DNA of 64,000 bases from an uncultured Oscillospiraceae bacterium (GTDB lineage: Bacteria; Bacillota; Clostridia; Oscillospirales; Acutalibacteraceae), in assembly GCA_900547445.1 (NCBI GenBank), contig URGJ01000001.1:53556-117555 (forward strand), read 5' to 3'. Below, piece by piece: positions 41,339-58,674 of the stretch (positions within the stretch are counted from its first letter, which is position 1; each line of letters opens with the position of its first letter). The position numbers were made by a program, and so were the translations under genes. The notes beneath the pieces were generated by a model. The model saw only the letters and a list, made by a program, of their open reading frames with translations, did not search any database and had not been told where the DNA came from.

Positions 41339-41716
41339 TTAGGTGTAAATAAAATCTGTATTCACGACCTCGGTGGCTCTGCTGCGGATGTTGTTCATTC
41401 GACCAACCCACGCCATTTGATTGTCCGCCTTGAGTTGTTCGGTCACACCCTCACGCTCTGCCATCTGTTTCACCAGCCGAGAAAACATTTCTTCCGCCTG
41501 TTTGTCAATATCAGCAAGGTAACTGTTTAACTTGCCGCTGGTCAGCAGATTGGCATATAGCACCCTTCGATTTTGCTTGAGGTGTCGCAAATGTCGCTGT
41601 CCCCATATGCCGATTGGCTGTTGTTCCTCAGCGGGTAATGCAAGGTCAGGCAGATAATAATCTCCCTGCAAGGTGTAACGGATCCCCGTTTTTTCGTCTG
41701 TAAAATGCTGTTTCAT
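41339..41716 (-). CDS. tnpV: TnpV-like transposon-encoded small protein (copy 1)
   Basis: ~125-aa protein of the Tn4451 TnpV type, found next to Mob/Pre relaxases in clostridial mobilizable elements. A paralogue at 53927..54307 shares LTSGKLNSYL.DI..QA...FSRLVK..AE.E.VTE.LK. Confidence 0.55.
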   Translation of the reverse strand: MKQHFTDEKTGIRYTLQGDYYLPDLALPAEEQQPIGIWGQRHLRHLKQNRRVLYANLLTSGKLNSYLADIDKQAEEMFSRLVKQMAEREGVTEQLKADNQMAWVGRMNNIRSRATEVVNTDFIYT

Positions 41717-41725
41717 TGTGTTGTC

Positions 41726-42904
41726 CTACCTTTCATCTTTATTATTTCTAAAGCGTTTTTCACGCTGTTTAGACTGTTTTTCCAACTTTGCTCTATCAAG
41801 CAAGTCATAAATTTGTTTATGACCAAATACTTTGTGGAGAAGTTTGTAATCCCTGTTTTCCACACGCAAATTTTCATTTTCTTGTGATAATTTTTCATTA
41901 ACTTTCGATAGCTTCTCGTTTTCACGATATAGGTTTCCGTTTGTGATGTTCAATCTGTGGTAACTGTCCAATGCCTTGAAATATCGTGCAAATAAGGTGC
42001 TGATTAAAGACTTAAATCGGGCTACAAGCGGCTCAACAAACTTTGTTTTATAACTTCTCGCCGACATCATTGCAGGCGGTTCAGGGAGCTGATATTCAGG
42101 CTCATTCATTATACTTTCATCAAGTTTCTGCAAGGCTTTCTCTCCGTTATCGAAGTTCTCAATGCGGTCAGCCATAACACGAAACTCATCTTTTTTCTCG
42201 GCAATTTGATTGTCCAATACAGCGATTTCCTTTTCTCGCTCCTGCTTTTTATAGTCTAAAACAGACAGATGTTTTTCGTGAGTATCCTTGTGTTCCCACT
42301 CAATTCCGTAGCGTTCCATAACAAATGCGAGTGCGGATTTTTCTGCGCTTACCCATTGATTCCACTCGGTATCTCCACGGGTTCCGCCCTTAAATCCTTG
42401 TGCGGCAAGAGCCTGCTTGAGTGATACTCTTGTATCAAGTCCACGCTTGCTTCCGATGGTGAACGGAACAAAATCAATGTGCAGATGTGGTGTTGCTTCG
42501 TCCATATGAAGATGAGCAGAGAACACTTTTAACTGAGGATTGCGTTCCTGAAACCCACGATAGTATTCATCCAAAATCCGTCGTGCAAACTCTCCGTTTT
42601 CGCTTTCTGCGCTCATATTTTCTTTATCGCCTATCTGCAAAATGAGTTCGTGGAACGGCTTTTCTTGCTTTGAATTACGGATTTTTTCATAATAGTTTTC
42701 TATCTTGCGGTCGGCTCTTGTCTGCTTAGAATTATATCTTTTAAGAGCTTCGTCAAACAATTCGTGATAGACATTTTTGATATTTTCATTGCAGTAGTCG
42801 ATATTTAGATGTGTTCGACTACCGTCAATATTTTCCGCTTTGAACTTGCGGCTGTTGTGATTAACCGAGCCTTTACCGACCATTGCACTAATCGTTCTTT
42901 TCAT
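41726..42904 (-). CDS. mob: MobV/Pre-family plasmid recombination/mobilization relaxase (TnpZ-like), copy 1
   Basis: Mob_Pre N-terminus MKRTISAMVGKGSVNHNSRKF and the metal-binding His motif HLHMDEATPHLHIDFVPF. Confidence 0.85.
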   Translation of the reverse strand: MKRTISAMVGKGSVNHNSRKFKAENIDGSRTHLNIDYCNENIKNVYHELFDEALKRYNSKQTRADRKIENYYEKIRNSKQEKPFHELILQIGDKENMSAESENGEFARRILDEYYRGFQERNPQLKVFSAHLHMDEATPHLHIDFVPFTIGSKRGLDTRVSLKQALAAQGFKGGTRGDTEWNQWVSAEKSALAFVMERYGIEWEHKDTHEKHLSVLDYKKQEREKEIAVLDNQIAEKKDEFRVMADRIENFDNGEKALQKLDESIMNEPEYQLPEPPAMMSARSYKTKFVEPLVARFKSLISTLFARYFKALDSYHRLNITNGNLYRENEKLSKVNEKLSQENENLRVENRDYKLLHKVFGHKQIYDLLDRAKLEKQSKQREKRFRNNKDER

Positions 42905-42940
42905 TAAATTTCACATCCTTTCCTTATCCGGCGTAGCCGG

Positions 42941-42986
42941 GGTTCTGTTACTCTTGTCAAGAGTAACGCAAAAGCACTTTTGACAG
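42941..42986. promoter_or_regulatory. Putative oriT (RS_A-like): 46-nt block identical upstream of both mob copies, containing inverted repeat ttactcttg-t-caagagtaa
   Basis: ggttctgttactcttgtcaagagtaacgcaaaagcacttttgacag is identical at 42941-42986 and 55530-55575, while the flanks diverge. It lies immediately 5' of each relaxase gene. Confidence 0.5.
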
Positions 42987-43175
42987 CCTTCTGCCATCAA
43001 AAGCTGCTATTGCGCTCTCCGAGGGGGCGTTGCCCCGTTGTCTGCGGACAACTCCCCAGCAGAGCCGCCCTTTGAAAAGGGCACCCTGCACCCCGCCTAA
43101 ACTTCGTATTGGAATACCTGCCGAAAAAGAACATTGCAAGATTGCGAAAGCCCCCGCCTTTGCAATGTTGCAACC

Positions 43176-44150
43176 TTACAGGTCGCCGCTCTCTTTTTCT
43201 TCGGGTAGTTGCCAATACCACACACTGCCTTCCTTAACAGATCGCACACGCAGAGTTTTCTTTGCTTCATCGAGCACTCGTTTGGAGATACCCAAACTCT
43301 GCGCTTTTTGTAGCAAGGTCTGTTGCGGGTACTTCCCGCCGGATAGGCAGTCAACGATAAGGCTTTCAGCCATATCGGATTTCTTCTCACGACTGACACC
43401 GCTGAGAAGATCGTCGATGGAAATTTCATAATGACCGAGCCATTTGAAGCCGTTGGCTTCACTCAGTTCAAAGGCGATAGGCTTGCCTTCCGGTGCGAGG
43501 GAAGATTTTTGATGTGCCGCCACTCGTATCTCCGGCTTGTCCTTTACTCTGCCGACTACAAGCACGCTTCTTGCAGCTGCTTGAAAGTCTATGGAACCAA
43601 GACCTCTATAATTGGATTTGTTACCCTGTGCCTTGTTTAAGTGTCCCACAAGTATAATCGCACAACGGTATTTGTCGGCGATCCTGCCAAGCTGAGAGAG
43701 AATGGTACGGACTTCATTTGCTCGGTTCATATCTACCTTTGCGCCGATATAGGCTTGCATCGGATCTAAGATAATTACCCTTGCCCCTGTTTCTGCAATT
43801 GCTTTTTCTACTCGCTCGTCAAGCATCGTCAATGTTGCCTCAGATTCGTCGATCACCTTGATTTGTGAGCAGTCAGCATTACCGGCAAGAAGACGGGGCT
43901 TGATGGTATCCCCAAGCCCATCCTCTGCGGTTTGATATATTACCTTGATAGGCTCACGCTCGGTGTCGTCGCAGGGTAGTTTTTCTCCCCTTGACAACAG
44001 AGCCGCTAATCTCAATATCAGTGTTGTTTTACCCTCACCGCCGTCGCCGTGAATGATTGTCAACTTACCGTATGGGATATAGGGATACCACAGCCATTCC
44101 ACTTCTTCGACGGGCACTTCATCCATACTGATGATTTTTAATTCCGCCAT
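43176..44150 (-). CDS. AAA_25-type (RepA/RecA-fold, DnaB-C-terminal-like) ATPase, copy 1
   Basis: Walker A GDGGEGKTTL and Walker B IIILDPM. RecA-like fold. Confidence 0.7.
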   Translation of the reverse strand: MAELKIISMDEVPVEEVEWLWYPYIPYGKLTIIHGDGGEGKTTLILRLAALLSRGEKLPCDDTEREPIKVIYQTAEDGLGDTIKPRLLAGNADCSQIKVIDESEATLTMLDERVEKAIAETGARVIILDPMQAYIGAKVDMNRANEVRTILSQLGRIADKYRCAIILVGHLNKAQGNKSNYRGLGSIDFQAAARSVLVVGRVKDKPEIRVAAHQKSSLAPEGKPIAFELSEANGFKWLGHYEISIDDLLSGVSREKKSDMAESLIVDCLSGGKYPQQTLLQKAQSLGISKRVLDEAKKTLRVRSVKEGSVWYWQLPEEKESGDL

Positions 44151-44287
44151 AGGCGTTGCCTCCTTTCAATTTTTCTCAAAACTATTGAAATTGGAGGAGT
44201 CATAGGTTATAATATTTGCAGTACATTTTTTGAGAAGACTGTTCCGTATCTGCGCCAACAGATACATTGAGAACAGTCTTTTCGGTT

Positions 44288-44620
44288 TTATATGCCATCC
44301 TTTCGCTCCTTCATTCCATATAGCGTGGTGTTAATCTGCTCAATACGATCGAGCAGGTCATCGTGAACATTTGCGCCGGCTTCGATGCGTTTAAGTTCAT
44401 CGAGGACGGCGGCAAGCTCGTTTCGCAGAGCCTTATAAACTCTCGGATTGCCGACCACCGTTATTTGTTGTTGCAGGGCACGAGCACAAAGATAATCTTG
44501 CTTTGTCAGTCCCGATATTCTGACATTACTGTCCAAAACATCAGCCTCCTGTGGCGACATACGAAAAGCGATTGTTTTGCTCCTCCAACGGTTGTGGCGG
44601 TCAAGATTTTTAGCGGACAT
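44288..44620 (-). CDS. Ribbon-helix-helix mobilization accessory protein (MobC-like), copy 1
   Basis: RHH signature RSKTIAFRMSPQEADVLD. AAAGGATGG RBS lies 8 nt before the MSAKN start. Paralogue at 56890..57216. Confidence 0.5.
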   Translation of the reverse strand: MSAKNLDRHNRWRSKTIAFRMSPQEADVLDSNVRISGLTKQDYLCARALQQQITVVGNPRVYKALRNELAAVLDELKRIEAGANVHDDLLDRIEQINTTLYGMKERKDGI

Positions 44621-45698
44621 TTTCAATATCCATCCTTTCATATTCAAGTTTCTTTGCCATTTCTGTCTGTTTTGACGGGAATAAGTGTGCATAGCGATAT
44701 GTGATCTCAATGCTTTCGTGACCGACACGGTCAGCAATTGCCACCGCAGAAAAGCCCATATCTATGAGCAGGGAAATATGGCTATGGCGCAAATCGTGAA
44801 TGCGGATACGCTTTACCCCTGCGGCTCTTGAGCCACGATCCATTTCTCGGTGCAGATAATTCTTTGAAATGGGGAATATACGGTCTTTCTTTTTGTAGCC
44901 GTACAGCATACCGATATAATCCTGCATTTCCTCACAGAGAAACTGCGGCATTTTAATTGTGCGGTTGCTTTTCCTTGTTTTCGGTGTGGTAATGACAGCT
45001 TCGCCGTGCAAACGCTGATAAGATTTGCTGATTGTAACTGTGCCTTTTTCAAAGTCGAAGTCCCCCGCAGTCAGGGCGAGCAACTCGCCCTCACGAATGC
45101 CGCACCAGTAAAGCATTTCAAATGCGTAATAGGATACGGGCTTGTCCATCATTTCATCGGCAAACTTCTTGTACTCTTCTTTCGTCCAAAACTTCATTTC
45201 CTTGCGTTCCTCTGTGCCCATATTACCGGCTTTTGCGGCGGGATTGGAACGAAGGTCATAATGTCTTACAGCGTGGTTAAATATAGCACTAAGCTGATTG
45301 TGGACGGTTTTGAGATAGGTCTGTGAATACGGCTTCTTCTTTTCATCACGAAAAGCGAGCAATTCATTCTGCCAAGCGATTACATCCTTTGTGGTGATCT
45401 CACTGACATTTTTCTTTTCAAAATAGGGTAAAATCTTGGTTTCAATGATATGCTTTTTGGTCAGCCAAGTGTTTTCTTTTAAGCGAGGTTTTATGTCCTT
45501 TATATAAAGCTCAACAAAGGCGGAAAAGTTCATATCCATATCGGCAGCACTTTGCTGCTTAAATACTCGCTCCCACTCCTGAGCCTCTCGTTTGGTTTCA
45601 AAACCTCGCTTACATTTCTGTTTGCGCTCGCCTTTACAATCTACATATCGTGTTAAAACATACCAAGTGCCGTTATCTTCATTTTTATAAACAGGCAT
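44610..45698 (-). CDS. int: Tyrosine-type site-specific integrase, copy 1
   Basis: C-terminal catalytic R..H..R..Y signature in IRIHDLRHSHISLLIDMGFSAVAIADRVGHESIEITYRYAHL. AAAGGAG RBS precedes the MPVYKNEDNGTWY start. Confidence 0.9.
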   Translation of the reverse strand: MPVYKNEDNGTWYVLTRYVDCKGERKQKCKRGFETKREAQEWERVFKQQSAADMDMNFSAFVELYIKDIKPRLKENTWLTKKHIIETKILPYFEKKNVSEITTKDVIAWQNELLAFRDEKKKPYSQTYLKTVHNQLSAIFNHAVRHYDLRSNPAAKAGNMGTEERKEMKFWTKEEYKKFADEMMDKPVSYYAFEMLYWCGIREGELLALTAGDFDFEKGTVTISKSYQRLHGEAVITTPKTRKSNRTIKMPQFLCEEMQDYIGMLYGYKKKDRIFPISKNYLHREMDRGSRAAGVKRIRIHDLRHSHISLLIDMGFSAVAIADRVGHESIEITYRYAHLFPSKQTEMAKKLEYERMDIENVR

Positions 45699-45885
45699 TT
45701 TTGTTCTCCTTTCTGGCTTGGTACAGCCTTTCATTAAAATACTCTCTGTTGACTCTTCCTGAGATGGTAATGAAACCTTTACGCTTCAGTTCCCCGTTCA
45801 GCTCTCGTATGACTTTGTAGGCATACGAGGTTGAAACATCGAGAATCTCAGCGACTTCTTCCACACGCATAAACTGTTGTCCCAT
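45685..45885 (-). CDS. xis: Excisionase / HTH DNA-binding protein (Xis), copy 1
   Basis: 66 aa, MRVEEVAEILDVSTSYAYKVIRELN HTH. Overlaps the integrase start. Confidence 0.7.
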   Translation of the reverse strand: MGQQFMRVEEVAEILDVSTSYAYKVIRELNGELKRKGFITISGRVNREYFNERLYQARKENKNACL

Positions 45886-46067
45886 AAGTTTCCTCCTTTC
45901 TTCGGTTGATATAATGGGTTGCCGTTTTACCCAAGTGCCGTTCCTACCCCTGCTGTTTCAGCGGCGTTGTTTCGCTCGCTCCGTCGCCACTCGGAGGTCT
46001 TGACAAAATCATATCACACTTGGACGGTCATTCAATTTTACTAAGCGTAATTGCTTAGTTCTATATC

Positions 46068-46096
46068 ATTATACTAAGCATATTTGCTTTTGTCAA
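46068..46096 (-). promoter_or_regulatory. Sigma-70 promoter for xis-int (element 2)
   Basis: On the minus strand: TTGACA (rc of 46091-46096), 17-nt spacer, TATAAT (rc of 46068-46073). Confidence 0.55.
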
Positions 46097-46139
46097 GTGG
46101 CTTGCAAGAAAATACTAAACTTTTTTGTTTTGATTTCTC

Positions 46140-46168
46140 TTGACACCACTAAACATTTCTGCTATACT
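46140..46168 (+). promoter_or_regulatory. Sigma-70 promoter for the XRE repressor (element 2), back-to-back with the xis-int promoter
   Basis: TTGACA (46140-46145), 17-nt spacer, TATACT (46163-46168). AAGAGGTG RBS and ATG at 46199. Confidence 0.6.
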
Positions 46169-46198
46169 ATATGTGAACACTTGAAAAGAGGTGCTTTT

Positions 46199-46729
46199 AT
46201 GGCTATTAGCGAAAGAATTCACTTTTTCCGAAATCTGCGTGGAATGACACAGAAATATCTCGGTTTACAACTCGGTTTTCCCGATAAATCTGCTGATGTT
46301 CGCATGGCACAGTATGAAACAGGTTCCCGTACTCCAAAAGCGGATATTACCGCAGCGTTGGCACAAGTTTTGGATGTTGCACCCGAAGCATTGAACGTGC
46401 CCGATATTGACAGTTACATAGGTTTGGCTCACACTTTCTTTGCGCTTGAAGACATTTATGGCATTACCGTCAGCGAAGCCGATGGGGAACTCTGCCTTAA
46501 AGTTAATGCCGACAAAGGCAAGGATGCCGCAGAGGTTATCCGTATGCTTGCCGCTTGGAACGAACAGAAAGCCAAACTCGATTCAGGTGAGATCGACAAG
46601 GAAACCTACGACCAATGGCGCTATCACTATCCCAAGTTCGATACAACTGGCGGATGGGTTAAAGTTCCTTCCCAAGAACTCAGCGATGCTATGGTCGAAG
46701 CGTTCAAAGACCGTTTGAAACCGGACTAA
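46199..46729 (+). CDS. XRE-family (cI-like) HTH repressor, copy 1
   Basis: HTH_3 N-terminus MAISERIHFFRNLRGMTQKYLGLQLG. The track ORF starts at 46097, but the RBS supports 46199. Confidence 0.8.
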   Translation: MAISERIHFFRNLRGMTQKYLGLQLGFPDKSADVRMAQYETGSRTPKADITAALAQVLDVAPEALNVPDIDSYIGLAHTFFALEDIYGITVSEADGELCLKVNADKGKDAAEVIRMLAAWNEQKAKLDSGEIDKETYDQWRYHYPKFDTTGGWVKVPSQELSDAMVEAFKDRLKPD

Positions 46730-46743
46730 GAAAAAAGACGACA

Positions 46744-46786
46744 AAAAGCCCTTAACTGCGGTAATCCACAGTTAAGGGCTTTTTAA
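46744..46786 (+). terminator. Rho-independent terminator after the XRE gene
   Basis: Perfect 13-bp stem aagcccttaactg (46746-46758) / cagttaagggctt (46769-46781), followed by TTTTAA. Confidence 0.8.
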
Positions 46787-47130: not shown

Positions 47131-47964
47131 TTATTTTTCTTGTAATATAATTGGCAAAAGTTGAGAAAATTTGCTAATTGTATAATCCGGTTTTATGCCA
47201 AAGGAAATGTATTGCTTTTTTAGTTCTTTTTCTCTTATGAAATCGTCCTCAGTCCAACTTGTTATGTCAACAAGCAAATCATAATAATTGTTTTTTTCTT
47301 TCGGATAATTAGCCCATACAGATGTTATATTTGCCAACTTTGCCATATATACATCTTTAGTTAAACTATCTCCAATATAAGCCGCATCACTTATACTACA
47401 ATTTTCTTGGTTGCAAATATTAATCAACACATCTTTATCAGGTTTTTTGCTTTTTACTGTAATTATTTTTTCATCCAAAGGAATATTGCTTTCGTATTCA
47501 CTTTCAGATGTATATATATGTTTAAAATACTGAGAAATTCCTAATCTTTTCAAACGATAAAAACCATTTTCTTGAGCAGATTCAGTATATCCAATTATTG
47601 TAACGCCATTCTCGAACAATCGCTTAAGCGTATCTGCAACTCCATCATATAATTGTAATTTACGTTTTCTAACGGAATTAAATTTATGAAAGGCTTCTCC
47701 CAAGATCTCTTTTATTTCTTCTTTACTTTTTCCATTATATTTGTTCAATATCGATGGTAGTTCTAACGTAGCAAAAGGATACTCAACACTACCATAACAT
47801 TGGTGTATCGACTTATATTCTTTTAAAAGAATATCTTTGTTTATTTTTGTGATGTTTACTATTTCATCTACCATTTCATAGAAAGAAGGGATAAAAAAAC
47901 CAAGCCAATCATATAGCGTATCGTCTAAATCAGTTATTATTATTTTCTTCATTTTAACCCCCAA
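47131..47964 (-). CDS. HAD-superfamily phosphatase-like protein
   Basis: Motif I IITDLDDTLYDW (DxDxT) and motif IV-like IGDSLTKD. 11-nt overlap with the upstream metallophosphoesterase gene. Confidence 0.7.
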   Translation of the reverse strand: MGVKMKKIIITDLDDTLYDWLGFFIPSFYEMVDEIVNITKINKDILLKEYKSIHQCYGSVEYPFATLELPSILNKYNGKSKEEIKEILGEAFHKFNSVRKRKLQLYDGVADTLKRLFENGVTIIGYTESAQENGFYRLKRLGISQYFKHIYTSESEYESNIPLDEKIITVKSKKPDKDVLINICNQENCSISDAAYIGDSLTKDVYMAKLANITSVWANYPKEKNNYYDLLVDITSWTEDDFIREKELKKQYISFGIKPDYTISKFSQLLPIILQEK

Positions 47965-49555
47965 AAGGTATTATATATTTGCATATAGGTTCTGTTTTTT
48001 CATTGCTACCACTAGGGAATAATTCATATATATTGAGCTTTAAGATTTTTTCTTCTATTTGAATTGTAGCAAACTGATTATTATATCCATCTGTTAAATC
48101 AGATTTAGAAGCACCTGTGCTTCCTAAGCCAATCACATAAATTGTCTTTTTTTGATCATCTTTACTTCCACATTTTCGTGTCATCTCTACATAAAAATTT
48201 TTATGAGTATGTCCGTGTAATACTAATAATATATTATTTTGTATACAGAACTGAGAAATGGCTTCACTGTCAAGTAACATTGAATACATCGGATTAACCT
48301 TAGGTTCTTCTGAATATATCACTGGCAAAAGATTATGATGCATAACTAAAATTCTCAATACATTCATTTTATCGGTCACTTTTAATGCATTCCTTAACTC
48401 AAACAACTGATTATTTCCAGCAAAACCCATTCCCCTAAAATGTTCTCGATCTTGTTGTAATATACAGGTATTTAGTGCTATTATTTCTACTAATGTGCCA
48501 TTAAGTGCAACAAATCTATGAATATTATTGTTATATTTATTAGCAGTTATGCCTTTTACCTTTTCATAGAAATCAATGTAATTATTCTTTGCTTTGTCAT
48601 AATTAAGTTCAATAGGCGAATTGTCTTCGTAGTCTTTTTCAGAATATTTCATATCGTGATTGCCAGGACAAAATATATATGATTCGCCATCTGTTCCATA
48701 ACCACTTGTCATTTGACAGAAAAATTTTTTTGCTTCTGCAAACTCTTTTTCATCAGCAGAAAAGGTAAAATCCCCTGATACAATAACTTTTGAAAATTTT
48801 TTAAATTTTATTGAATCCAACTTGTTTTTTAAAATATCAAATATTTGGTTGTTACTGCCAACAGATTTTTTGAAAGCAAAATGATTGTCAGAGAAGTGTA
48901 AATCAGAAAGCCATAGTAATTGATTGGTGTTAGCTATAGAAAAGGATGTTTCAACATTTCCGTTTCCCGGAGCATATGAAACAATTTGTCGATTTTCATC
49001 ATCAGTTTTAGCTTTTCTTAAAAACCAAATGGTACATTGTTGTTCAATCAACTCATTTAAATTATAAACCTTTTTATTATTAAAAACAGAAAACGGAGAC
49101 GTTTTACTTGCAAAATGCTCATCAACTTGTACATAAGAATAATTGTTAATGTATTTGTCAGGACTATCTATAGGTTCGGATATCTTGTCGAACTTGAACC
49201 ACATTAAATATTCATTTTTATTGTAATACGCAGGTGTTGCATTCTTTTGTGGTGAAGGGATAGGATTATTGAAATCAAATTTTATATCTATACATTGTGC
49301 CCTTCTAAGTTCACTTCTACCTGAATCAAGTAAAAACACTTCAAAATGTGTATCACTAACAGCTTTTTCTGCTAATGATTTGAAGACTTCAAGCGCAACT
49401 TTTTCTTGTGGCTTCGCCCACCATCCCCACCAAACAAAACCTTTTGCTGCAATTTTATCATTGTGTATCTTGATCGTGTTTTTTGAAGACAAATCTCTAT
49501 ATCTTAGTACTATTGTTTCAATTTCGCAACCCAAGATCGTGTCACATCCTTTCAT
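47954..49555 (-). CDS. Calcineurin-like metallophosphoesterase with ~200-aa N-terminal domain of unknown function
   Basis: Metallophosphoesterase motifs LWLSDLHFS (D-x-H), VIVSGDF (GD), FCPGNHD (GNHD), VMHHN, LVLHGHTH (GH-x-H). 14-nt overlap with the upstream 656-aa gene. Confidence 0.75.
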   Translation of the reverse strand: MKGCDTILGCEIETIVLRYRDLSSKNTIKIHNDKIAAKGFVWWGWWAKPQEKVALEVFKSLAEKAVSDTHFEVFLLDSGRSELRRAQCIDIKFDFNNPIPSPQKNATPAYYNKNEYLMWFKFDKISEPIDSPDKYINNYSYVQVDEHFASKTSPFSVFNNKKVYNLNELIEQQCTIWFLRKAKTDDENRQIVSYAPGNGNVETSFSIANTNQLLWLSDLHFSDNHFAFKKSVGSNNQIFDILKNKLDSIKFKKFSKVIVSGDFTFSADEKEFAEAKKFFCQMTSGYGTDGESYIFCPGNHDMKYSEKDYEDNSPIELNYDKAKNNYIDFYEKVKGITANKYNNNIHRFVALNGTLVEIIALNTCILQQDREHFRGMGFAGNNQLFELRNALKVTDKMNVLRILVMHHNLLPVIYSEEPKVNPMYSMLLDSEAISQFCIQNNILLVLHGHTHKNFYVEMTRKCGSKDDQKKTIYVIGLGSTGASKSDLTDGYNNQFATIQIEEKILKLNIYELFPSGSNEKTEPICKYIIPFGG

Positions 49556-51512
49556 TTATACAGCTTTCATACCACTCGTGAGGGAGTAAAGTCGAATTAA
49601 AAGCAGCTTCAAATAACGGGTACAATTCTTTATATGTTTTGCCGTTAGACACAATTTTCTTTAACTCCGATGTTTGCAGCGGAATGATTTTCATTCCTGC
49701 TACAGACTTTGAATAGTCTTGTGGATCATAAAACGGCGTTGTTTTTCTGCTACGAAAATCAGAAATAACATTTATGTTAAGATAGTTTGTAGCAAATACG
49801 CAGTAAGAATTCATATTACCGCTGCGTATTAAATGCATGCCCAAATGTCTTGATACCGGTTCCATTTCCATTCTACGTTGGTTTGTACTGTCGGCAAGTG
49901 TTGCTTCGAGCAAAAGTGTATGTTCAGGATAGTACTCGGTTGCCTCATATTCATAAACTATATCTGCCTCGCCACCGGCTGCGTGAGTTTTAGGTAGTAA
50001 ATCAGCATCCAGCGAGAGCTTCATATAATCAAGAATCTTACCGTGCCTTTCACTTGCTTTGTACCACAAAATACCAAGCACATATTCAAAAATCGTAGGT
50101 ACATCGGCATTATCGGTAACCATACTTCTGATTTCATCATCATTTCTGGTTTCAAAGCAATCCAAAAGTGACAATATCTTGTCATCAGTAAATTTAGTAT
50201 CTATAAGGTGCTGTAATCTCTGGTAGCGTGTATCCTCCAAAGCAGCACGGGCCGATTGCATATCAGAAACATTTATGCCGAGTTCTTCATTAATTCCTGC
50301 AACAATAGTGTCATCATCAACTATGAGACATTCTGATATTTCTGGCATATCACAATCTTCATACAGCAATTCAGAAGAAGTAAATGCATCTTGATATAAT
50401 TTCGCTGCTACTGATTTGAAAAAGTGTTTCGGCACTATATCAAATTTTATAGTATCATCCTCAAATAACACTACATCCGTTGTTTTAATATACCTACGAT
50501 TAAGGTCAAGATAGTCTGAAAGCGTGGCTTTAGCCTTAAATAAGTGCATTATTTTAAAGAAAGCAATTTTGAAGGTGTTTTCATCTTCAACTTCGTTAAA
50601 TAGGGTTGTTTTCAAATGTGCCACAGGATGGTTACTAATTGCCTTTTCAGAGGTGGTATCAAATAAATAATTGCGCCACCATTTCCCTATTTTTATATCT
50701 CTTGTTGCATCATAAATAGATATCAAGTTATCTATATCATTCAATACGAAAACTCGGTGTAATGCTTGATACAATTTAAAATACGACTTATCGTATTGTC
50801 GACTTTTTCTGTTGAGTCCTATTTCACATATCAACTCTTCTGTAACTTCATTATCAATAAAATAATCCAAAGCCGTTTTGTAATTAAGCATTCCCATCAA
50901 TCGATTTACAATGATTTCATCAATAGATATATTTCTGCAACGCAATTTGGATATACCGTCAATAATTTCGTTCGTTTCTGTTTCGCCAATGCAAAGAGGT
51001 AAAAGATATGTATATTCATCAAGTGTTAAATAATCAAATTTATTCAACAAATGAATCAATACCATAAATGGTCGCACAGTGTGTCCGTCCACATTATAAT
51101 ATGTTTTCAGCAATTGCTTCAAATAGATATAGCTGTCTTTTGCTATTTGAAATTGATTATCAGAAGAAAAATCATTTTCTGAAGTGATTTTAAGCAGTGC
51201 TTTACCGGCATTGCTCAGTTTTCTTCCATCATCTATTAACCCAATATCAACTAAGCCTGAAGTTTTTTCACGAGCGTCTTTTGGTTTGTTTCCGGCATTG
51301 CCTTCAACAAAGTCTTTAGATTGCATAAAATCATAATAACGAGTTTGTAAATCTTTATTTCCCGACCAGCTTTTACTCTTATTCTCTTCAAGCTTCCAAA
51401 ACTCATCTAACAACGAAAGTTGTTCTTCAATAGTTTTATTGAAATTTTTTGTTCTAAAGCTGGTTGTTCCCAGACTCCAGCAAAAGCTTTTATACGGAAT
51501 CACATTCGGCAT
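49542..51512 (-). CDS. Large hypothetical protein (656 aa), candidate restriction endonuclease of the two-methylase (type IIS-like) R-M system
   Basis: Position immediately downstream of two D12-class m6A methylases and a C-protein. Size is typical of AlwI/BstNBI-type type IIS enzymes. No catalytic motif confidently recognised. Confidence 0.35.
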   Translation of the reverse strand: MPNVIPYKSFCWSLGTTSFRTKNFNKTIEEQLSLLDEFWKLEENKSKSWSGNKDLQTRYYDFMQSKDFVEGNAGNKPKDAREKTSGLVDIGLIDDGRKLSNAGKALLKITSENDFSSDNQFQIAKDSYIYLKQLLKTYYNVDGHTVRPFMVLIHLLNKFDYLTLDEYTYLLPLCIGETETNEIIDGISKLRCRNISIDEIIVNRLMGMLNYKTALDYFIDNEVTEELICEIGLNRKSRQYDKSYFKLYQALHRVFVLNDIDNLISIYDATRDIKIGKWWRNYLFDTTSEKAISNHPVAHLKTTLFNEVEDENTFKIAFFKIMHLFKAKATLSDYLDLNRRYIKTTDVVLFEDDTIKFDIVPKHFFKSVAAKLYQDAFTSSELLYEDCDMPEISECLIVDDDTIVAGINEELGINVSDMQSARAALEDTRYQRLQHLIDTKFTDDKILSLLDCFETRNDDEIRSMVTDNADVPTIFEYVLGILWYKASERHGKILDYMKLSLDADLLPKTHAAGGEADIVYEYEATEYYPEHTLLLEATLADSTNQRRMEMEPVSRHLGMHLIRSGNMNSYCVFATNYLNINVISDFRSRKTTPFYDPQDYSKSVAGMKIIPLQTSELKKIVSNGKTYKELYPLFEAAFNSTLLPHEWYESCINERM

Positions 51513-51525
51513 AACCGTACTCTCC

Positions 51526-52446
51526 TCAATAATTTGTTATTAGGACTTCCTCGGTAACGGAGGACTTATCTTTAGTTTGATAATTTGAATTCGAGTAGCT
51601 ATAATTGAGTCGTATTGCCTTATATTTTTCTGCGTTTTTTTCAAGCCACTCAATTAAAATACTGTTTTCCTTACCTTTACTTCTCAATACGTTCGATAAA
51701 GCAAATCGAATATTCCTATCATTCAATTCGTCTAAAAAAGAGAGTAGGTCTTTTTCATCTTCTTCACTCCAACCGCCTTGCTCGTTGTATGTGGCACAAG
51801 TAATCAAGTATGGCGGGTCAACATATACAAAATCCTTTGATGTTAACTTCGATGTATCAAATTCTCTAAAGTCACAGCAGGTAAAGATACAGTTTTGTTC
51901 TTGGATTTTGTCAATAAAATCAATGAGTTTTTGTTCCATCTTTTTATTGAAATCTCTTTTTCCAACCGGTAAATTAAACTCGCCGTTTGAATTAAATCGA
52001 ATTTGATTATTAAATGCATATACGATTATTACATAAAGCATAACGTAGTAATAATAATCAAAGTTTTCATTTGCATGTTTTTGATTAAAATCTGCACGCA
52101 GCTTTAAATATCCTTCTCTGTTATAATTACCAAGTCCTTTGCTGCTTTCACAACCGTAATAGTCATATCCGTGTTCACTCACAAGTGACAAGTTATACTT
52201 TTCTATAATTTCATAAATCCATTCTAAAATGGATTCTTTATCAAGATTCTTAAACGTATTATACAAATAAAGTAGGTTTTCATTTAAATCATTATAAATA
52301 ACTCGGTTGCAATCAACATTGATACCAACATTACATCCACCGCAAAATAAGTCTACAAACACATCTATGTCTTTTGGAAAAAGCGGCAATATTTGAGGTA
52401 ACAATTTATATTTGCCGCCGGTATAATTAAGCGGTGATTGTATCAT
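51526..52446 (-). CDS. D12-class (Dam/DpnM-like) N6-adenine DNA methyltransferase, M1
   Basis: N-terminal LNYTGGKYKLLPQI, the F.GG AdoMet motif DLFCGGCNVG, and catalytic DPPY in VYVDPPY. Confidence 0.85.
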   Translation of the reverse strand: MIQSPLNYTGGKYKLLPQILPLFPKDIDVFVDLFCGGCNVGINVDCNRVIYNDLNENLLYLYNTFKNLDKESILEWIYEIIEKYNLSLVSEHGYDYYGCESSKGLGNYNREGYLKLRADFNQKHANENFDYYYYVMLYVIIVYAFNNQIRFNSNGEFNLPVGKRDFNKKMEQKLIDFIDKIQEQNCIFTCCDFREFDTSKLTSKDFVYVDPPYLITCATYNEQGGWSEEDEKDLLSFLDELNDRNIRFALSNVLRSKGKENSILIEWLEKNAEKYKAIRLNYSYSNSNYQTKDKSSVTEEVLITNY

Positions 52447-52451: not shown

Positions 52452-53513
52452 TTACTCCTCGTTAAAACAAATACACAAAAATAATCTTTCGGCATTTTCT
52501 GAAATGTCAGATTTTCCGGTTGTAAATGCTTTGTAGCTTTCTTCAAAAACCTTTACAGTTCCTTTTTGACTCAGTATTCTCATAATATCATCGTCGGAAA
52601 TCTTGGCATTAGAACGGCAATTTCCTTTTTCAGCCATATTATTATATGAAAGTAGAATGTATTTGGCTTTAATATCGTTTATCAGTGTTTCAAATGCTTT
52701 TGTTGCTCCGATTGTACAATATTTACTCTTCATTCCGCTTCTATCCATCTTCTTGGCGACACCAAAAACCTCTGGTTTTTCCCAACGTGCAACATTTTCA
52801 AGCAAATGATATGAATCACAATATTGTCTTGAATTATATGGCGGATCTATATAAACGAGGTCAGCCTCAATCCTCTTAACAAGGTTATTGGCATCCTCAT
52901 TAAAGCATTGATTTTTGGGATTGTTGTTAACTTCAGCCAAGGGAACATAAAGTTCCAACGAACCTTCGAATTTTGCCCCCTTTCTGTATGCATCGTAATG
53001 CCCGCAGGTTACAGCAATTTTATCCATTGCATAAAGCAGTGATGTTATTAAGATTGCTCTTTCTCGATTATTTAAATTGCCTTTTTTATAATTTCGTTCT
53101 ATATCCTCTCGAATATATCCGATTTTAGCGCAATCTTTTTTACTGAAATAGGTATCTGCAAAATTGCGTGTCATATAATTTTCCTCACAATTAGTTTTTG
53201 CATTGTACCTAACAACATAATCAATTATTTTTTGTTGATCATAGCTTTCAGCACCAAACCAAGCAAAATTGCAAATATAGTTGCTATACATCAAATCATT
53301 TGTAATAAGTGTCTTATCTGCAAAAGCAGAAGAAACTGCACCGGTTCCCGCAAAAATATCTGCAACTGTTTCAATATCGGCGCATTCATCATTTACAACG
53401 CCGGTGATAAACGAAAGCAACTTATATTTATTTCCTAAATAACGTCTATTGTTTATCAATGAGGTTTTATAAGTATTTTCAGTTGCAGTCATTGCAAATC
53501 CTCCAACAATCAT
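52452..53513 (-). CDS. D12-class N6-adenine DNA methyltransferase, M2 (DpnA-like)
   Basis: YLGNKYKLLSFI, DIFAGTGAVS, and catalytic VYIDPPYN. Confidence 0.8.
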   Translation of the reverse strand: MIVGGFAMTATENTYKTSLINNRRYLGNKYKLLSFITGVVNDECADIETVADIFAGTGAVSSAFADKTLITNDLMYSNYICNFAWFGAESYDQQKIIDYVVRYNAKTNCEENYMTRNFADTYFSKKDCAKIGYIREDIERNYKKGNLNNRERAILITSLLYAMDKIAVTCGHYDAYRKGAKFEGSLELYVPLAEVNNNPKNQCFNEDANNLVKRIEADLVYIDPPYNSRQYCDSYHLLENVARWEKPEVFGVAKKMDRSGMKSKYCTIGATKAFETLINDIKAKYILLSYNNMAEKGNCRSNAKISDDDIMRILSQKGTVKVFEESYKAFTTGKSDISENAERLFLCICFNEE

Positions 53514-53583
53514 CTTTATCTATCTATAATTATACTAAATATTTAGATTATATCAAATACAGTGTCCAATAAATCGTACTCTT

Positions 53584-53790
53584 TCAAATTCCGTCAAACA
53601 GTTCCGAAAGAGATATTTCTAATCCATTGGCTATTTTTTCAATGTTAACGATAGAAATATTACGTTTTCCAAGTTCAACGCTTGCAAAATAAGTTCTATC
53701 CATACCTATTTTTTGAGCAAATTTTTCTTGACTCAATCCGGTATGACTTCTTAACTCTCGTATTCTATTACCAATTTTATCTGTAATCAT
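53584..53790 (-). CDS. Controller (C) protein, XRE-family HTH, of the R-M operon
   Basis: 68-aa HTH_3 protein IRELRSHTGLSQEKFAQKIGMDRTYFASVELGKRNISIVNIEKIA, 70 nt upstream of the first methylase on the same strand. Confidence 0.65.
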   Translation of the reverse strand: MITDKIGNRIRELRSHTGLSQEKFAQKIGMDRTYFASVELGKRNISIVNIEKIANGLEISLSELFDGI

Positions 53791-53884
53791 AATGTACCCT
53801 CGATATTAAATTGCACATACCGCAGACTATATTTATACAGTTTAATTATATGTTTAATCCGCAAATAAGTCAACTGTTTTTAAG

Positions 53885-53916
53885 CAACAAAAAATCGGCA
53901 GGGATTGCTCCCTGCC
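53885..53916 (-). terminator. Rho-independent terminator after tnpV copy 2
   Basis: Stem ggcaggga (53897-53904) / tccctgcc (53909-53916) with 4-nt loop. On the minus strand it is followed by GATTTTTTGTTG. Confidence 0.6.
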
Positions 53917-53926
53917 GCTGTTGTGT

Positions 53927-54307
53927 TTATACTGTGTAAATCAGTTCTGCATTTACAATTTCTGTTGATCTATTACGGATATTGTTCATCTTTTGAACCC
54001 ACAACATCATATCGGTTGATTTGAGTTCTTCGGTTACATTTTCTTTTTCGGCTAAGTCTTTTACAAGCCGAGAAAAAAGGTCTTGAGCCTGCTGTTCAAT
54101 ATCTACAAGATATGAATTGAGCTTACCGCTTGTCAGCAAATTGTAGTAACGTACCTTATGGTGTTGCTTCAAATATCGTTTATGCCTCATTCCCCAAACG
54201 CCGATATTCGCTTCCTTTTCTTCTTCCGCCGGTAATAAATCGGGCAACATATAGTCGCCCACCTGCGTATAAGTACCGCCTTGCTTTTCAAAAATTGTGT
54301 TTGCCAT
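53927..54307 (-). CDS. tnpV: TnpV-like protein, copy 2
   Basis: Paralogue of 41339..41716. Confidence 0.55.
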   Translation of the reverse strand: MANTIFEKQGGTYTQVGDYMLPDLLPAEEEKEANIGVWGMRHKRYLKQHHKVRYYNLLTSGKLNSYLVDIEQQAQDLFSRLVKDLAEKENVTEELKSTDMMLWVQKMNNIRNRSTEIVNAELIYTV

Positions 54308-54331
54308 TTTGTTTTACCTCCAAAAATTTAT

Positions 54332-55492
54332 TTATCTCGAGCGTGGATTTTCACGCTTACGACCTTTAATATTTCTTGCCTGTTCAAGCAACTCGTCAAT
54401 CTGTTTATGCCCGAAAGCCTTACGCAAAAGCTTGTAATCTTTGACCTCCGAACGCAAATTTTCGTTTTCGCTTTTCAGCTTGCTGTTGATTTTAGACAAC
54501 ATTTCGTTCTCACGATATAGGTTGCCATTTGTAATATTTAGCCTGTGGTAATTGTCCCAACCCTCAAAACAACGAGCCAATGCAGTCTTAATTAACGCTT
54601 TTAATTTTTGAATAAGCGGCTCTGCAATTTTAGTTTTATATGCTTTTACAGACATAAAACCTTGCGGCTCGGACAGTTGATATTCGGGTGCATTATCAAG
54701 CATTTCTTCCACATTTCTTAAGTTTTCCAAACCATCATCATAGTTTAACACTCGCTCGGATAACACATTGAATTCAGTCTGTTTTTCTTCGATTTTAGCA
54801 CCTAACTGTTCAAGTTCCGTCGCTCGCTCTTGCTTTTTATAATCAAGAACAGACAAATGTTTTTCGTGCGAGCCTTTATGTTCCCACTCAATTCCGTGCC
54901 GTTCCATTACGAAAGCTAAAGCGGACTTTTCTACGCTTACCCATTGATTCCACTCGGTATCTCCACGAGTTCCGCCCTTGAAACCTTGTGCGGCTAACGC
55001 TTGTTTGAGACTTACTCTCGTATCAAGTCCACGCTTGCTTCCGGTTGTGAACGGAACAAAATCAATATGCAAATGGGGCGTCGCCTCGTCCATATGCAGA
55101 TGAGCAGAGAACACTTTTAGGTTGGGATTTCGCTCTTGAAATCCACGGTAATACTCATCTAAAACCTGCCGTGCAAGCTGTCCGTTTTCGCTTTCGGCAC
55201 TCATATTTTCCTTATCGCCAATCTGCAAAATCAGTTCGTGAAACGGTTTTTCTTGCTTAGAATTTCTGATTTTTTCATAGTAATTTTCTATTCTACGGTC
55301 GGCTCTTGTCTGTTTTTCGTTGTATCTTTTTAGCGCTTCATCAAACAATTCGTGATAGATTTTCTTTATCGGCTCGTTACAGTAATCAATGTTCAAATGC
55401 GTTCTGCTACCATCAACATTTTCCGCCTTGAACTTGCGGCTGTTATGATTGACCGAGCCTTTACCCACCATTGCGCTTATCGTTCTTTGCAT
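54332..55492 (-). CDS. mob: MobV/Pre-family relaxase, copy 2
   Basis: MQRTISAMVGKGSVNHNSRKF ... HLHMDEATPHLHIDFVPF. GGAGG RBS 9 nt before the ATG at 55492; the track ORF start at 55663 is a spurious extension. Confidence 0.85.
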   Translation of the reverse strand: MQRTISAMVGKGSVNHNSRKFKAENVDGSRTHLNIDYCNEPIKKIYHELFDEALKRYNEKQTRADRRIENYYEKIRNSKQEKPFHELILQIGDKENMSAESENGQLARQVLDEYYRGFQERNPNLKVFSAHLHMDEATPHLHIDFVPFTTGSKRGLDTRVSLKQALAAQGFKGGTRGDTEWNQWVSVEKSALAFVMERHGIEWEHKGSHEKHLSVLDYKKQERATELEQLGAKIEEKQTEFNVLSERVLNYDDGLENLRNVEEMLDNAPEYQLSEPQGFMSVKAYKTKIAEPLIQKLKALIKTALARCFEGWDNYHRLNITNGNLYRENEMLSKINSKLKSENENLRSEVKDYKLLRKAFGHKQIDELLEQARNIKGRKRENPRSR

Positions 55493-55529
55493 TATATACA
55501 CCTCCAATCTCATAAACTTGCTCGTCCTC

Positions 55530-55575
55530 GGTTCTGTTACTCTTGTCAAGAGTAACGCAAAAGCACTTTTGACAG
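55530..55575. promoter_or_regulatory. Putative oriT, copy 2 (identical 46-nt block)
   Basis: Identical to 42941-42986. Confidence 0.5.
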
Positions 55576-55741
55576 GCAAGCCCATCAAAAATGCAACCTG
55601 CAAGCAGGTTTTGCGCTCTCCGAGGGGCAAAGAGCCGCCTTTGAAAAGGCACTCTCTGCACACTCCGCTAAACTTTATCTGTGTCGGTCTGTGTCGATAG
55701 TGACGGTGATTTTGTCACCGCCTAAAACAGCGACACAACCG

Positions 55742-56893
55742 TCACACATCGTCACGCTGTTCATAAGTCAAACTAACTTTACGCCCATCGTGACAGCGTT
55801 TGTTCTGATAACGGATTCCATACTCATCGAACAAACGCCCTGCATTGATATTCAGCTTCATCGTCAAAGCGTTTGCTTTCATTTCAACGCCGAGAAATTC
55901 AACAAGTTCCGTCGGGCTGCCATACCATTCGGGATTTTCATTTGTGATTTTGACGGCGATATTTTCAAGCAAAGGTTCAGGCGGCAATTTCCAAAGTTCC
56001 GTTTCGGTTCTCTCAAGTTCCCACACAAGGGTTTCAGGATTGCGATTGAGATAAATCTTTTGATCGGGCTGGTCTCTGCCTGAAACTTCAAGCGTTGCCG
56101 AATTGCTTGTTCGTTTTTCTTTCCGTAAAATAAAGCCACCGTCGGCGGCGCCAAGCAATCCGTTAGTTCCTGAAATCATATCAAACTTATCCTCAGAGTT
56201 CTGCTTGCGTGTATGATGAACAAGCAGCAAACATATTCCGTAACTGTCCGCAAACTTTTTAAGCCTTGTTATAATCTCATAATCGTTTGCGTAACTGTAA
56301 TTATCACCGCCCACTTCACGCACCTTTTGGAGAGTGTCTATGATAATCAATTTTGTATCGGGGTGTTCTGCCATAAATCTTGTAAGCTGTTCGTCAAGTC
56401 CACTTCCAAGTTGACCCGCCGAAACAGAAAAGTACAAATTATTCGCACTTTCTGTTCCGAACATCCTATACAATCTTTCTTGCAATCTGTGGTAATCATC
56501 TTCAAGCGCAAGGTACAAAACAGTTCCTTTTCTCACATCAAAATTCCAAAGCGGTGTACCTGTACTGATATGGTAAGCAAGCTGTGCCATAAGAAAACTT
56601 TTGCCGAGTTTTGGTGCTCCTGCAAAAATATATGTGCCCGGATAAAGCAAACCGTCAATCAGCGGCGGTTTACTTTGATATACCGTGTTATACAACTCAC
56701 GCATAGAAATCGTTTTCAAATGTGATGGATCGAGCTGTTGCAAAAATTCTTTTTGCATTTCTTCAAGATAATCATCTAAACTCTTGTCATTTTCATTAAA
56801 ATCAGTTATACTGTTGTTAATTTGTTTTAGGATTGACTGCTCCGTATCTGCGCCAACAGATACGATCGGAGCGGTCTTTTCTTTTTCTGTCAT
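55742..56893 (-). CDS. AAA_25-type ATPase with N-terminal extension, copy 2
   Basis: Walker A GAPKLGKSFL and Walker B LIIIDTLQ. 4-nt overlap with the MobC-like gene. Confidence 0.7.
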   Translation of the reverse strand: MTEKEKTAPIVSVGADTEQSILKQINNSITDFNENDKSLDDYLEEMQKEFLQQLDPSHLKTISMRELYNTVYQSKPPLIDGLLYPGTYIFAGAPKLGKSFLMAQLAYHISTGTPLWNFDVRKGTVLYLALEDDYHRLQERLYRMFGTESANNLYFSVSAGQLGSGLDEQLTRFMAEHPDTKLIIIDTLQKVREVGGDNYSYANDYEIITRLKKFADSYGICLLLVHHTRKQNSEDKFDMISGTNGLLGAADGGFILRKEKRTSNSATLEVSGRDQPDQKIYLNRNPETLVWELERTETELWKLPPEPLLENIAVKITNENPEWYGSPTELVEFLGVEMKANALTMKLNINAGRLFDEYGIRYQNKRCHDGRKVSLTYEQRDDV

Positions 56894-57216
56894 TCCGATG
56901 CCTCCTTTAATCCACCGAGAATATCAGCAATCATTTCGATTAAATCAAGTAATTCGTCATTGACTTCACCGCCGTTCTCAATTCTCTGTAATTCCGTAAG
57001 TACATCTGCAAGATTATTACGCAAAGCCTTGTATACTCTCGGATTACCTTGAACGACCACTTCTTTGTTAGTAAGTCGCCTTGTGATATAGTCCTGCTTG
57101 GTTAAACCCGAAAGCTGAACATAGCGCTCAATCTGTTCCCACTCTTCGGGCGAAACTCTAAAAGCCACAGTCTTATTTCTCCAACGGTTATGTTCATCTT
57201 TGTTTTTAAGTGACAT
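56890..57216 (-). CDS. RHH mobilization accessory protein (MobC-like), copy 2
   Basis: RNKTVAFRVSPEEWEQIERYVQLSGLTKQDY. GGAAGGAGAG RBS 8 nt before the MSLKNKDEH start. Confidence 0.5.
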   Translation of the reverse strand: MSLKNKDEHNRWRNKTVAFRVSPEEWEQIERYVQLSGLTKQDYITRRLTNKEVVVQGNPRVYKALRNNLADVLTELQRIENGGEVNDELLDLIEMIADILGGLKEASE

Positions 57217-57217
57217 A

Positions 57218-58297: not shown

Positions 58298-58298
58298 T

Positions 58299-58505: not shown

Positions 58506-58645
58506 CCTTTCATTTTTATATTTTCATATTTATTGTCGGATACTTTCTGACCGCATTCCGATTTGCCCGAGCGGATACACCATTACCGTGATGTATGACG
58601 GTTATTCTGTTGTTTGCGAATAGACTTAACGCTATTTGCTTAATG

Positions 58646-58674
58646 ATTATACTAAACATATTCCGTTATGTCAA
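58646..58674 (-). promoter_or_regulatory. Sigma-70 promoter for xis-int (element 1)
   Basis: TTGACA (rc of 58669-58674), 17-nt spacer, TATAAT (rc of 58646-58651). Confidence 0.55.

Follow-up and report, generated by a model that had tools for sequence, protein, structure and literature searches.

A putative Metis (MisA-MisB) gene pair at the 3′ end of an AlwI-family restriction-modification operon in an integrative mobilizable element of an uncultured Oscillospiraceae bacterium

Overview

We analyzed a 64,000-nt stretch of contig URGJ01000001.1 from an uncultured Oscillospiraceae bacterium (assembly GCA_900547445.1; below, "the window"), and in particular two adjacent minus-strand genes, encoding a calcineurin-like phosphoesterase and a HAD phosphatase, that lie at the downstream end of a restriction-modification (R-M) operon. 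The two proteins are very likely MisA and MisB of the anti-phage family that has been called type I Metis, PUA-Cal-HAD and DS-9. The whole locus is probably best explained as a MisA-MisB pair appended to the 3′ end of an AlwI-family R-M operon, carried as cargo of an integrative mobilizable element (IME), with the R-M methylases feeding the MisA sensor. By its gene content it is a further member of the Metis/PUA-Cal-HAD family in the R-M-embedded arrangement that the literature predicts, and no new kind of system. A preliminary description of the region, made from the letters alone, had called the pair an uncharacterised candidate defence or accessory module; the defence role agrees with published work, in which the family is anti-phage, and the same work means that "uncharacterised" must be dropped.

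The published background is as follows. The two-gene system DS-9 (metallophosphatase plus HAD) was validated as anti-phage in the DefensePredictor study (PMC13092281). Osterman et al. named the DS-9 family Metis, with MisA/MisB as type I, and reported that N6-methyl-deoxyadenosine monophosphate (m6dAMP) specifically activates MisA, the source being Dam-methylated host DNA degraded by lytic phages, that activated MisA splits NAD+ into NMN and AMP, and that MisB dephosphorylates basal m6dAMP and so averts autotoxicity (10.1101/2025.11.05.686725). Zhang et al. described the same family, with the same trigger, as PUA-Cal-HAD, a filament in which HAD turns deoxynucleoside triphosphates (dNTPs) into diphosphates (dNDPs) and the Cal domain turns dNDPs into monophosphates (dNMPs); PUA-Cal binds DNA in vitro without preference for methylated DNA, and its activator is the free mononucleotide (10.64898/2026.01.15.699771). 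The earlier suggestion that both enzymes act on nucleotides thus agrees with work on the E. coli homologues, and a signal-degrading role, also proposed, belongs to HAD in one of the published models. The idea of cyclic-oligonucleotide signalling fares differently, as the signal is a breakdown product of methylated host DNA and no cyclase-made second messenger.

The MisA and MisB proteins

The first approximately 200 residues of the 533-residue phosphoesterase, previously listed as a domain of unknown function, match Pfam PF24405 and are predicted to form a PUA-like m6dAMP sensor, and the WWGWW string within WWGWWAKPQEK (residues 42–52) is its ligand-binding motif II. The predicted pocket residues are R18, Y19, R20, H31, W43, W45, W46, K48, Y110 and Y111, and the predicted metal ligands of the calcineurin-like (Cal) domain are D218, H220, D262, N299, H300, H406/H407, H449 and H451. 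The motifs reported in the preliminary description, D218-x-H220, G261-D262, G298-N-H-D301 and H447-G-H449-x-H451, are all present. Against the NCBIfam profile NF053862 ("DS9_1 anti-phage phosphoesterase") the protein scores 418.2 bits, with all positions covered (1–486 of 486) and a cut-off of 420.

In an alignment of 41 MisA homologues (32–86% identity), the invariant pocket columns include R18, R20, H31, W43, W45, W46, E51, Y110 and Y111, and K48 is conserved in at least 90%; motif II (VWWGWWxK) and motif V (TPxYY) are both found in the window protein. Invariant columns of the Cal domain are D218, H220, D262, N299-H300-D301, H406, H407 and H447-G-H449-x-H451, and its dinuclear metal site is predicted to be intact. 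For comparison with the experimentally studied proteins we translated the first 400 nt of the cloned E. coli genes given in the supplementary table of the Metis preprint, and compared residues 1–133; a DNA-level comparison of the enterobacterial locus L040 with E. coli genomes, meant to lead to an annotated MisA, gave no match. Identity of the window PUA domain to E. coli MisA is 39% for 401675 and 35% each for 402837 and E308, and all the residues mutated in the two studies that fall in the compared stretch, R8/R10, H23, W35, W37/W38, K40 and Y100/Y101 (E308/ECOR28 numbering), are identical in window MisA, as are R9 and W39 (401675 numbering). In E. coli, defence is abolished by MisA mutations at R8/R10, W35, W37/W38, K40 and Y100/Y101 in the pocket and at D207/H209, D255, H293, H420 and H462/H464 in the Cal domain, and by MisB mutations at D7/D9, W15, E56, K180 and G204/D205/D210 (10.64898/2026.01.15.699771; 10.1101/2025.11.05.686725). 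These defence-critical residues of MisA and MisB are all conserved in the window proteins.

The HAD protein matches Pfam HAD_2 (1e-16) and has, as first noted, an intact DxDxT nucleophile motif. All of 50 MisB homologues share D8, D10, W16, E57, K170, G194, D195 and D200, and 98% of them share T123; the conserved positions are those mutated in the ECOR28 HAD. The window protein is 51% identical, without gaps, to the validated MisB of E. coli 401675 over residues 1–133, and 40% identical over 133 residues to the type II Metis MisB of Phyllobacterium. It also matches the PADLOC profile PDLC03008 ("Hydrolase", 1.3e-50), a further likeness to type II Metis, or Hydrolase-3TM (MisB-MisC); the effector of that type is the three-transmembrane protein MisC, whereas the effector of the window would be MisA, and no MisC-like gene is present.

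The AlphaFold2 model of MisA has a pLDDT of 86.8. A Foldseek search with the complete model returned matches to the Cal domain only, among them Lmo2642, Rv0805, SMPDL3A, GpdQ and purple acid phosphatases, with E values between 1e-9 and 1e-15, and Mre11 at ranks 43–48 (E near 1e-6). A PUA-like reader fold is present in the protein. These profile and structure searches, which the preliminary description had proposed, lead from the N-terminus to PF24405, from the whole protein to DS9_1, and from the Cal domain to nucleotide and phosphodiester hydrolases. A PDB sequence search with MisA and with the restriction endonuclease found no match in a copy lacking the PUA-Cal cryo-EM entries (9ZWP and others), and a search of PHROGs gave generic phosphoesterase matches only. 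The Cal domain weakly matches the PADLOC CBASS "Effector" profile (5e-11). We considered an effector of cyclic-nucleotide signalling (CBASS, Pycsar or type III CRISPR ancillary) and rejected it, since domain and profile searches of the six genes of the operon found no cyclase or other signal-synthase domain.

The type I Metis systems of E. coli 401675, 402837 and E308 have the same two-gene order, PUA-Cal protein followed by HAD phosphatase, and the same ligand-pocket and catalytic residues. They are free-standing and depend on the chromosomal Dam (GATC), whereas the window pair closes an R-M operon that brings two methylases along, and sits in a low-G+C element of a gut anaerobe. The PUA-Cal-HAD (DS-9) system of ECOR28 likewise shares with the window pair motifs II and V, the Cal metal ligands, the HAD motifs (I–IV) and the cap residues; between its chemistry, a HAD-essential dNTP-depleting filament, and the NAD+ cleavage of Metis the window sequence cannot discriminate.

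Operon organization

All six minus-strand open reading frames (ORFs) of the preliminary description were found at the positions it gave, and its domain assignments hold in Pfam searches (Table 1). The first gene encodes a control (C) protein (Pfam HTH_19 2e-12, HTH_3 1e-11; PADLOC "Control_protein" 2.6e-25). The two D12-class N6-adenine methyltransferases (MTases) that follow align to the first half (MTase-1; PADLOC MTase_II, 1.9e-151) and the second half (MTase-2) of one 722-position PADLOC double-MTase profile, which is the layout expected for a type IIS enzyme with an asymmetric site, and MTase-2 exceeds the cut-off of the TIGR00571 dam subfamily (161.8 against 114.85 bits). The 656-residue protein is, as first supposed, a predicted restriction endonuclease (REase); its match to the AlwI-family profile PF09491 spans positions 2–441 of 441 (PADLOC REase_II, 4e-32), and the R-M framing of the operon stands. 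By homology this part of the operon is a C-protein-controlled type II R-M system of the AlwI family, with an endonuclease and its cognate adenine methylases. It shares RE_AlwI, one adenine methylase per strand and the C-protein with other AlwI-family type IIS systems, which have two D12 methylases or a fused double methylase, and differs from them in the two extra genes after the endonuclease.

Table 1. Features of the R-M/MisAB operon and the flanking elements (window coordinates)
Feature	Position	Strand	Remarks
Promoter-like site	53845..53873	minus	TTGACT, 17-nt spacer, TATAAT; near-consensus; 5′ of C-protein gene
C (control) protein	53584..53790	minus	68 aa; helix-turn-helix, HTH_3/XRE type
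Second promoter-like site	53529..53556	minus	ahead of MTase-1
N6-adenine DNA methyltransferase 1 (MTase-1, D12 class)	52452..53513	minus	Pfam PF02086 3e-34
N6-adenine DNA methyltransferase 2 (MTase-2, D12 class, Dam family)	51526..52446	minus	306 aa; Pfam PF02086 7e-39
AlwI-family type IIS restriction endonuclease	49542..51512	minus	656 aa; Pfam PF09491 RE_AlwI 1e-70
MisA/PUA-Cal homologue (predicted sensor + effector)	47954..49555	minus	533 aa
PUA-like domain of MisA, predicted m6dAMP pocket	48992..49510	minus	residues 16-188; Pfam PF24405 5.4e-48
Calcineurin-like phosphoesterase (Cal) domain of MisA	48200..48901	minus	residues 219-452; PF00149 1.2e-12
MisB/HAD phosphatase	47131..47952	minus	273 aa from ATG 47952; 277 aa from TTG 47964
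Strong terminator-like hairpin closing the six-gene unit	46742..46785	minus	20 pairs + T-run
Terminator-like hairpin	53896..53917	minus	closes upstream TnpV gene; just ahead of promoter-like site 53873-53845
Two tandem element backbones	41339-46729 and 53927-59247		12.59 kb apart, 71-85% identical
Second-element cargo	34597-41145		AbiEii toxin gene 35219-36115, preceded by 209-aa ORF (no Pfam match)

The genes are closely spaced, with some corrections to the intervals given earlier. Of the gaps of 5–14 nt claimed among the leading genes, those between MTase-1 and MTase-2 (5 nt) and between MTase-2 and the REase (13 nt) are as described, and that between the C-protein and MTase-1 is 70 nt, or 91 nt if MTase-1 starts at ATG 53492; this ATG lies behind a GGAGG and is probably the true start, giving 346 aa. 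The 14-nt overlap of the REase and MisA genes is likewise real. The 11-nt overlap of MisA and HAD requires a TTG start for HAD, and the start is probably ATG 47952, which has a GGGGG Shine-Dalgarno sequence, gives 273 aa as in the homologues, and sits 1 nt past the MisA stop (TAAaATG). The six genes are thus not "translationally fused", as they had been termed; they are tightly packed and probably translationally coupled.

On the minus strand no strong terminator-like site was found between the promoter-like site (53873–53845) and the 20-pair hairpin (46785–46742), the sole terminator-like match inside the unit being a weak 5-pair stem (52869–52856) within the MTase-1 gene, and so the six genes (53873 to 46742) are consistent with a single transcription unit. 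The closing hairpin lies approximately 13 nt beyond the stop of a convergent plus-strand helix-turn-helix (HTH) gene (46097–46729) and may serve both.

Linkage to R-M operons among relatives

Two published statements bear on this arrangement. Zhang et al. noted that the PUA-like family is "embedded in R-M operons with N6-adenine methylases" (10.64898/2026.01.15.699771), and Osterman et al. proposed "putative type III Metis systems", as a prediction only, in which a linked methylase, MisD, takes the place of Dam (10.1101/2025.11.05.686725). The window has what the latter describes, a MisA homologue whose gene shares an operon with genes for DNA adenine methyltransferases, here two PF02086 proteins, and the unit has a terminator-like hairpin at each end; it differs from the prediction in that its methylases belong to a full R-M system with REase and C-protein, and in that MisB is kept.

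We surveyed 80 loci with MisA relatives, one per species, whose genes were annotated in iterative profile searches seeded with the window proteins and additional methylases, and Pfam-annotated the contigs of ten homologues spread over the identity range. N6A-type methylase genes lie directly upstream, on the same strand, in 11 of the 11 sampled relatives with MisA at least 49% identical (12 of 12 with the window). The order of the window, with C-protein, two methylases, AlwI endonuclease, MisA and MisB, recurs in L001 and L002 (MisA 95% and 97% identical) and in P0003, P0007, P0015 and P0017 (83%, 62%, 59% and 56%). Elsewhere the pair follows D12, an unknown gene, DpnII, HNH and N6_N4 (P0014, MisA 59%); D12, N6_N4 and FokI, with Hachiman after the pair (P0006, 61%); or HTH, N6_N4 and an 876-aa D12 protein (P0023, P0024 and L003, 49%). 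In a Verrucomicrobiia genome (MisA 34% identity) the order is MisA, MisB, double D12, AlwI, which by its layout is an independent join of the pair and an R-M system.

Across the 80 species-level loci the HAD gene directly adjoins MisA in about 50, and MisA and MisB thus form a unit that is conserved in many phyla. Six of the 80 have a D12 or N6_N4 methylase within 3 kb (L001, L002, L003, L038, L048 and L050) and one more (L017) has one at 5.5 kb; the methylase search was limited to these two families, and 6–7 of 80 is a lower bound. Co-occurrence of the pair with Dam-like MTases, raised in the preliminary description as something to look for, is therefore a feature of all the sampled relatives at or above 49% identity and of a small minority of the species-level loci.

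Within the operon, identity to the window varies from gene to gene. In L001 the R-M genes are 75–82% identical and MisAB 95–98%; in L081 the R-M genes are 92–97% and MisAB 78–81%; and in L088 identity runs 99, 87, 65, 56 and 63% from MTase-1 to HAD. Identity along the operon is thus mosaic, its modules having been swapped by recombination while the architecture was retained.

Several further observations concern these relatives. The 876-aa D12-methylase protein of the 49%-identity clade, directly upstream of MisA (L089 5350–7980, L003 7344–9974, L096 4350–6980), exceeds a plain D12 methylase by about 500 residues and is not accompanied by a separate endonuclease gene; it may be a fused methylase-endonuclease, or bear some other domain. 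The genes directly after MisB include a DUF4062 gene (L088 6341–7327; a 2026 preprint gives this domain the new name NIR NADase), Hachiman HamA with its helicase (L094 6623–9926) and Abi_C (L086 12980–13909), and by its gene content the 3′ end of these R-M operons acts as an accretion point for defence genes. In L097 (2953–5681) a free-standing MisA-MisB pair (44% identity) is divergent from genes for a 488-aa thymidylate-kinase-like protein and a 428-aa fusion of nucleoside 2-deoxyribosyltransferase and methyltransferase. Zhang et al. mention "modified base synthesis" operons as partners of the PUA-like family (10.64898/2026.01.15.699771), and these neighbours may be one such operon. Finally, near-identical MisA proteins (95–97%) occur in bins of different phyla, a Gastranaerophilales metagenome-assembled genome (L001, whose HAD is 98% identical to that of the window) and an uncultured Clostridium (L002, whose contig ends inside MisA), and 428 sequences belong to the protein cluster P0001, drawn at 98% identity; this reflects either a wide spread of the cassette through gut bacteria or the mis-binning of mobile-element contigs.

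Proposed function and alternative explanations

By analogy with the E. coli systems, the operon could provide two successive layers of defence. From their family, the two D12 methyltransferases would place m6A at every copy of the asymmetric R-M site in the host chromosome, one strand as well as the other, and the endonuclease would be the initial barrier to DNA that enters unmethylated. A lytic phage that escaped restriction and degraded the host chromosome to mononucleotides would free m6dAMP, as has been shown for E. coli Metis and Dam; the m6dAMP would occupy the PUA pocket of MisA and switch on the effector, and the active enzyme would destroy essential nucleotides (NAD+, or dNTPs together with MisB), so that phage replication halts and the infection is aborted. 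In the uninfected cell MisB would dephosphorylate the small amounts of m6dAMP arising in DNA repair, and self-intoxication would be avoided. Many Firmicutes are not known to have Dam. Carrying its own methylases would make the sensor independent of host Dam after transfer of the element, which is the "type III Metis" idea of Osterman et al.

A functional tie between the pair and the N6-adenine methylases of the R-M cassette, as first proposed, is very probable, and it is rather likely that the window MisAB depends functionally on the linked methylases. For the gut-Firmicutes MisAB clade as a whole, we put slightly better than even chances on the pair being an obligate add-on of m6A R-M operons, which has joined R-M systems of four or more unrelated types on separate occasions, always at their downstream end, and for which the R-M methylome doubles as self-mark and alarm store. 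What our analysis adds to the two preprints is the clade-wide, multi-architecture and mosaic association with m6A R-M operons, a modest advance.

Several points weigh against this explanation of the locus. Most MisA-MisB pairs stand alone, and because they lie without a methylase, a methylase of its own is not required by the pair; the sampled relatives at 43–45% identity (L004, P0030 and P0034) are likewise free-standing with no methylase. Adjacency could in part be due to defence genes gathering in the cargo slot of a single IME family. It is only for E. coli systems that m6dAMP activation, m6A dependence and abortive-infection resistance were shown, and trigger, substrate and phage resistance would all be carried over here from homologues at 35–51% identity; moreover, the two published mechanisms differ as to the substrate, NAD+ in one and dNTPs in the other, and as to whether defence needs MisB. 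MisA falls 1.8 bits short of the NF053862 equivalog cut-off, which is a naming threshold built around E. coli proteins and not a mechanistic feature. Site counts, lastly, do not single out a recognition sequence (GGATC or GAGTC type) for the AlwI-family system, on which the density of m6A would depend: GGATC/GATCC is not depleted in the window (observed 44, expected 34.5) and GAGTC/GACTC is mildly depleted (33 against 55.8). GATC itself is strongly under-represented (87 against the 199 that a maximal-order Markov model predicts, and 8 against 20 within the operon), which hints at long exposure to GATC-specific restriction.

The serious alternative is co-location, in which a self-contained type I Metis lies beside an independent R-M system, both being mere defence cargo of the IME, and any m6A of the host suffices. 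It gains from the fact that E. coli type I Metis runs on the chromosomal Dam with no linked methylase, from the approximately 90% of species-level loci without an adjacent D12 or N6_N4 methylase, and from the other defence genes that travel in the same way, AbiEii and a DUF4011 helicase in the neighboring unit of this IME family and Hachiman, Abi_C or DUF4062 beside the pairs of relatives. Independent cargo does not readily account, however, for upstream, same-strand and tightly spaced methylases in every sampled relative at or above 49% identity, in four unrelated architectures, nor for a partner that is invariably an N6A-type methylase system and never a cytosine-5 one; the architecture has been maintained through module exchange, and MisA is not set apart from the R-M genes by a promoter or terminator. 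On balance we regard co-location as unlikely, and favor a MisA-MisB pair that is fed by the methylases of its operon.

Two further explanations concern the proteins themselves. The 533-aa protein might be a type IV-like modification-dependent nuclease, with the PUA-like domain as reader and an Mre11-like cutter, and the Mre11 structures among the Foldseek matches and the in vitro DNA binding of PUA-Cal would fit this; an m6A-dependent nuclease encoded together with two m6A methylases would, however, cut the chromosome of its own host, nucleotide phosphodiesterases head the structural matches with lower E values than Mre11, and the published DNA binding shows no methyl preference, the activator being a free mononucleotide. 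We consider such a nuclease highly improbable. Still less credence, practically none, is due to a housekeeping role in nucleotide metabolism (a cNMP phosphodiesterase plus a 5′-nucleotidase) next to an R-M system by chance. Some sources do annotate the homologues generically, as "CpdA" or "metallophosphoesterase", and the HAD protein has weak matches to pyrimidine nucleotidases, but the pair lies in IME cargo whose G+C differs from that of the backbone (see below), is spread patchily across phyla, has other defence genes as neighbors, and belongs to a family shown experimentally to be anti-phage by three groups. Neither a syntenic place of the pair in the core genome of related species nor a growth phenotype unconnected with phage, which would favor this reading, is seen. 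Context and published phenotypes thus exclude ordinary metabolic genes brought here by chance adjacency, which the preliminary description had named as the outcome that would undo it.

Sensing of host-chromosome shredding through free m6dAMP was not published until 2025–2026, and solely for E. coli systems that borrow Dam. The window locus, like its relatives, offers a natural instance of the predicted sensor travelling with its own methylases and REase on a mobilizable element. The locus makes the "type III Metis" hypothesis directly testable, the linkage suggests a general reason for R-M operons to acquire accessory genes, and a simple annotation rule follows for a gene pair that most sources label "CpdA" or "hypothetical". 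If the pair is indeed an add-on of the R-M operon, the unit would be a portable two-layer immune system for any host, including those that lack Dam, in which the R-M methylome is also a stored abortive-infection alarm; it would be the first natural, testable example of "type III Metis", with R-M methylases selected for signal production.

Mobile element context

By its position, the six-gene unit is the cargo of the guaA-proximal one of two tandem paralogous IMEs. The elements lie at the 3′ end of the GMP synthase gene guaA (60050–61603), and both copies of the backbone have the order HTH, integrase, an unassigned ORF of about 148 aa, AAA_25, Mob_Pre and TnpV, with different defence cargo after each; G+C is 28–35% in the cargo and 40–50% in the backbone. 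Relatives of the R-M/MisAB cassette are accompanied by the same backbone in L084 and L095, and in L081 the cassette lies next to guaA with a TnpV fragment alone.

The cargo of the second element also encodes a protein of 1679 aa that combines DUF4011, SF1 helicase (AAA_11/AAA_12), MTES_1575 REase-like and DUF3320 domains and may act in defence on its own. We also note that the two element copies share, without a single difference, a stretch of 46 nt (42941–42986 and 55530–55575), in flanking backbone that is 73–85% identical. This stretch lies just ahead of the Mob_Pre relaxase gene in each copy, holds an inverted repeat of 10 bp without mismatch, GTTACTCTTG T CAAGAGTAAC, and is probably the origin of transfer (oriT), or else the result of recent gene conversion.

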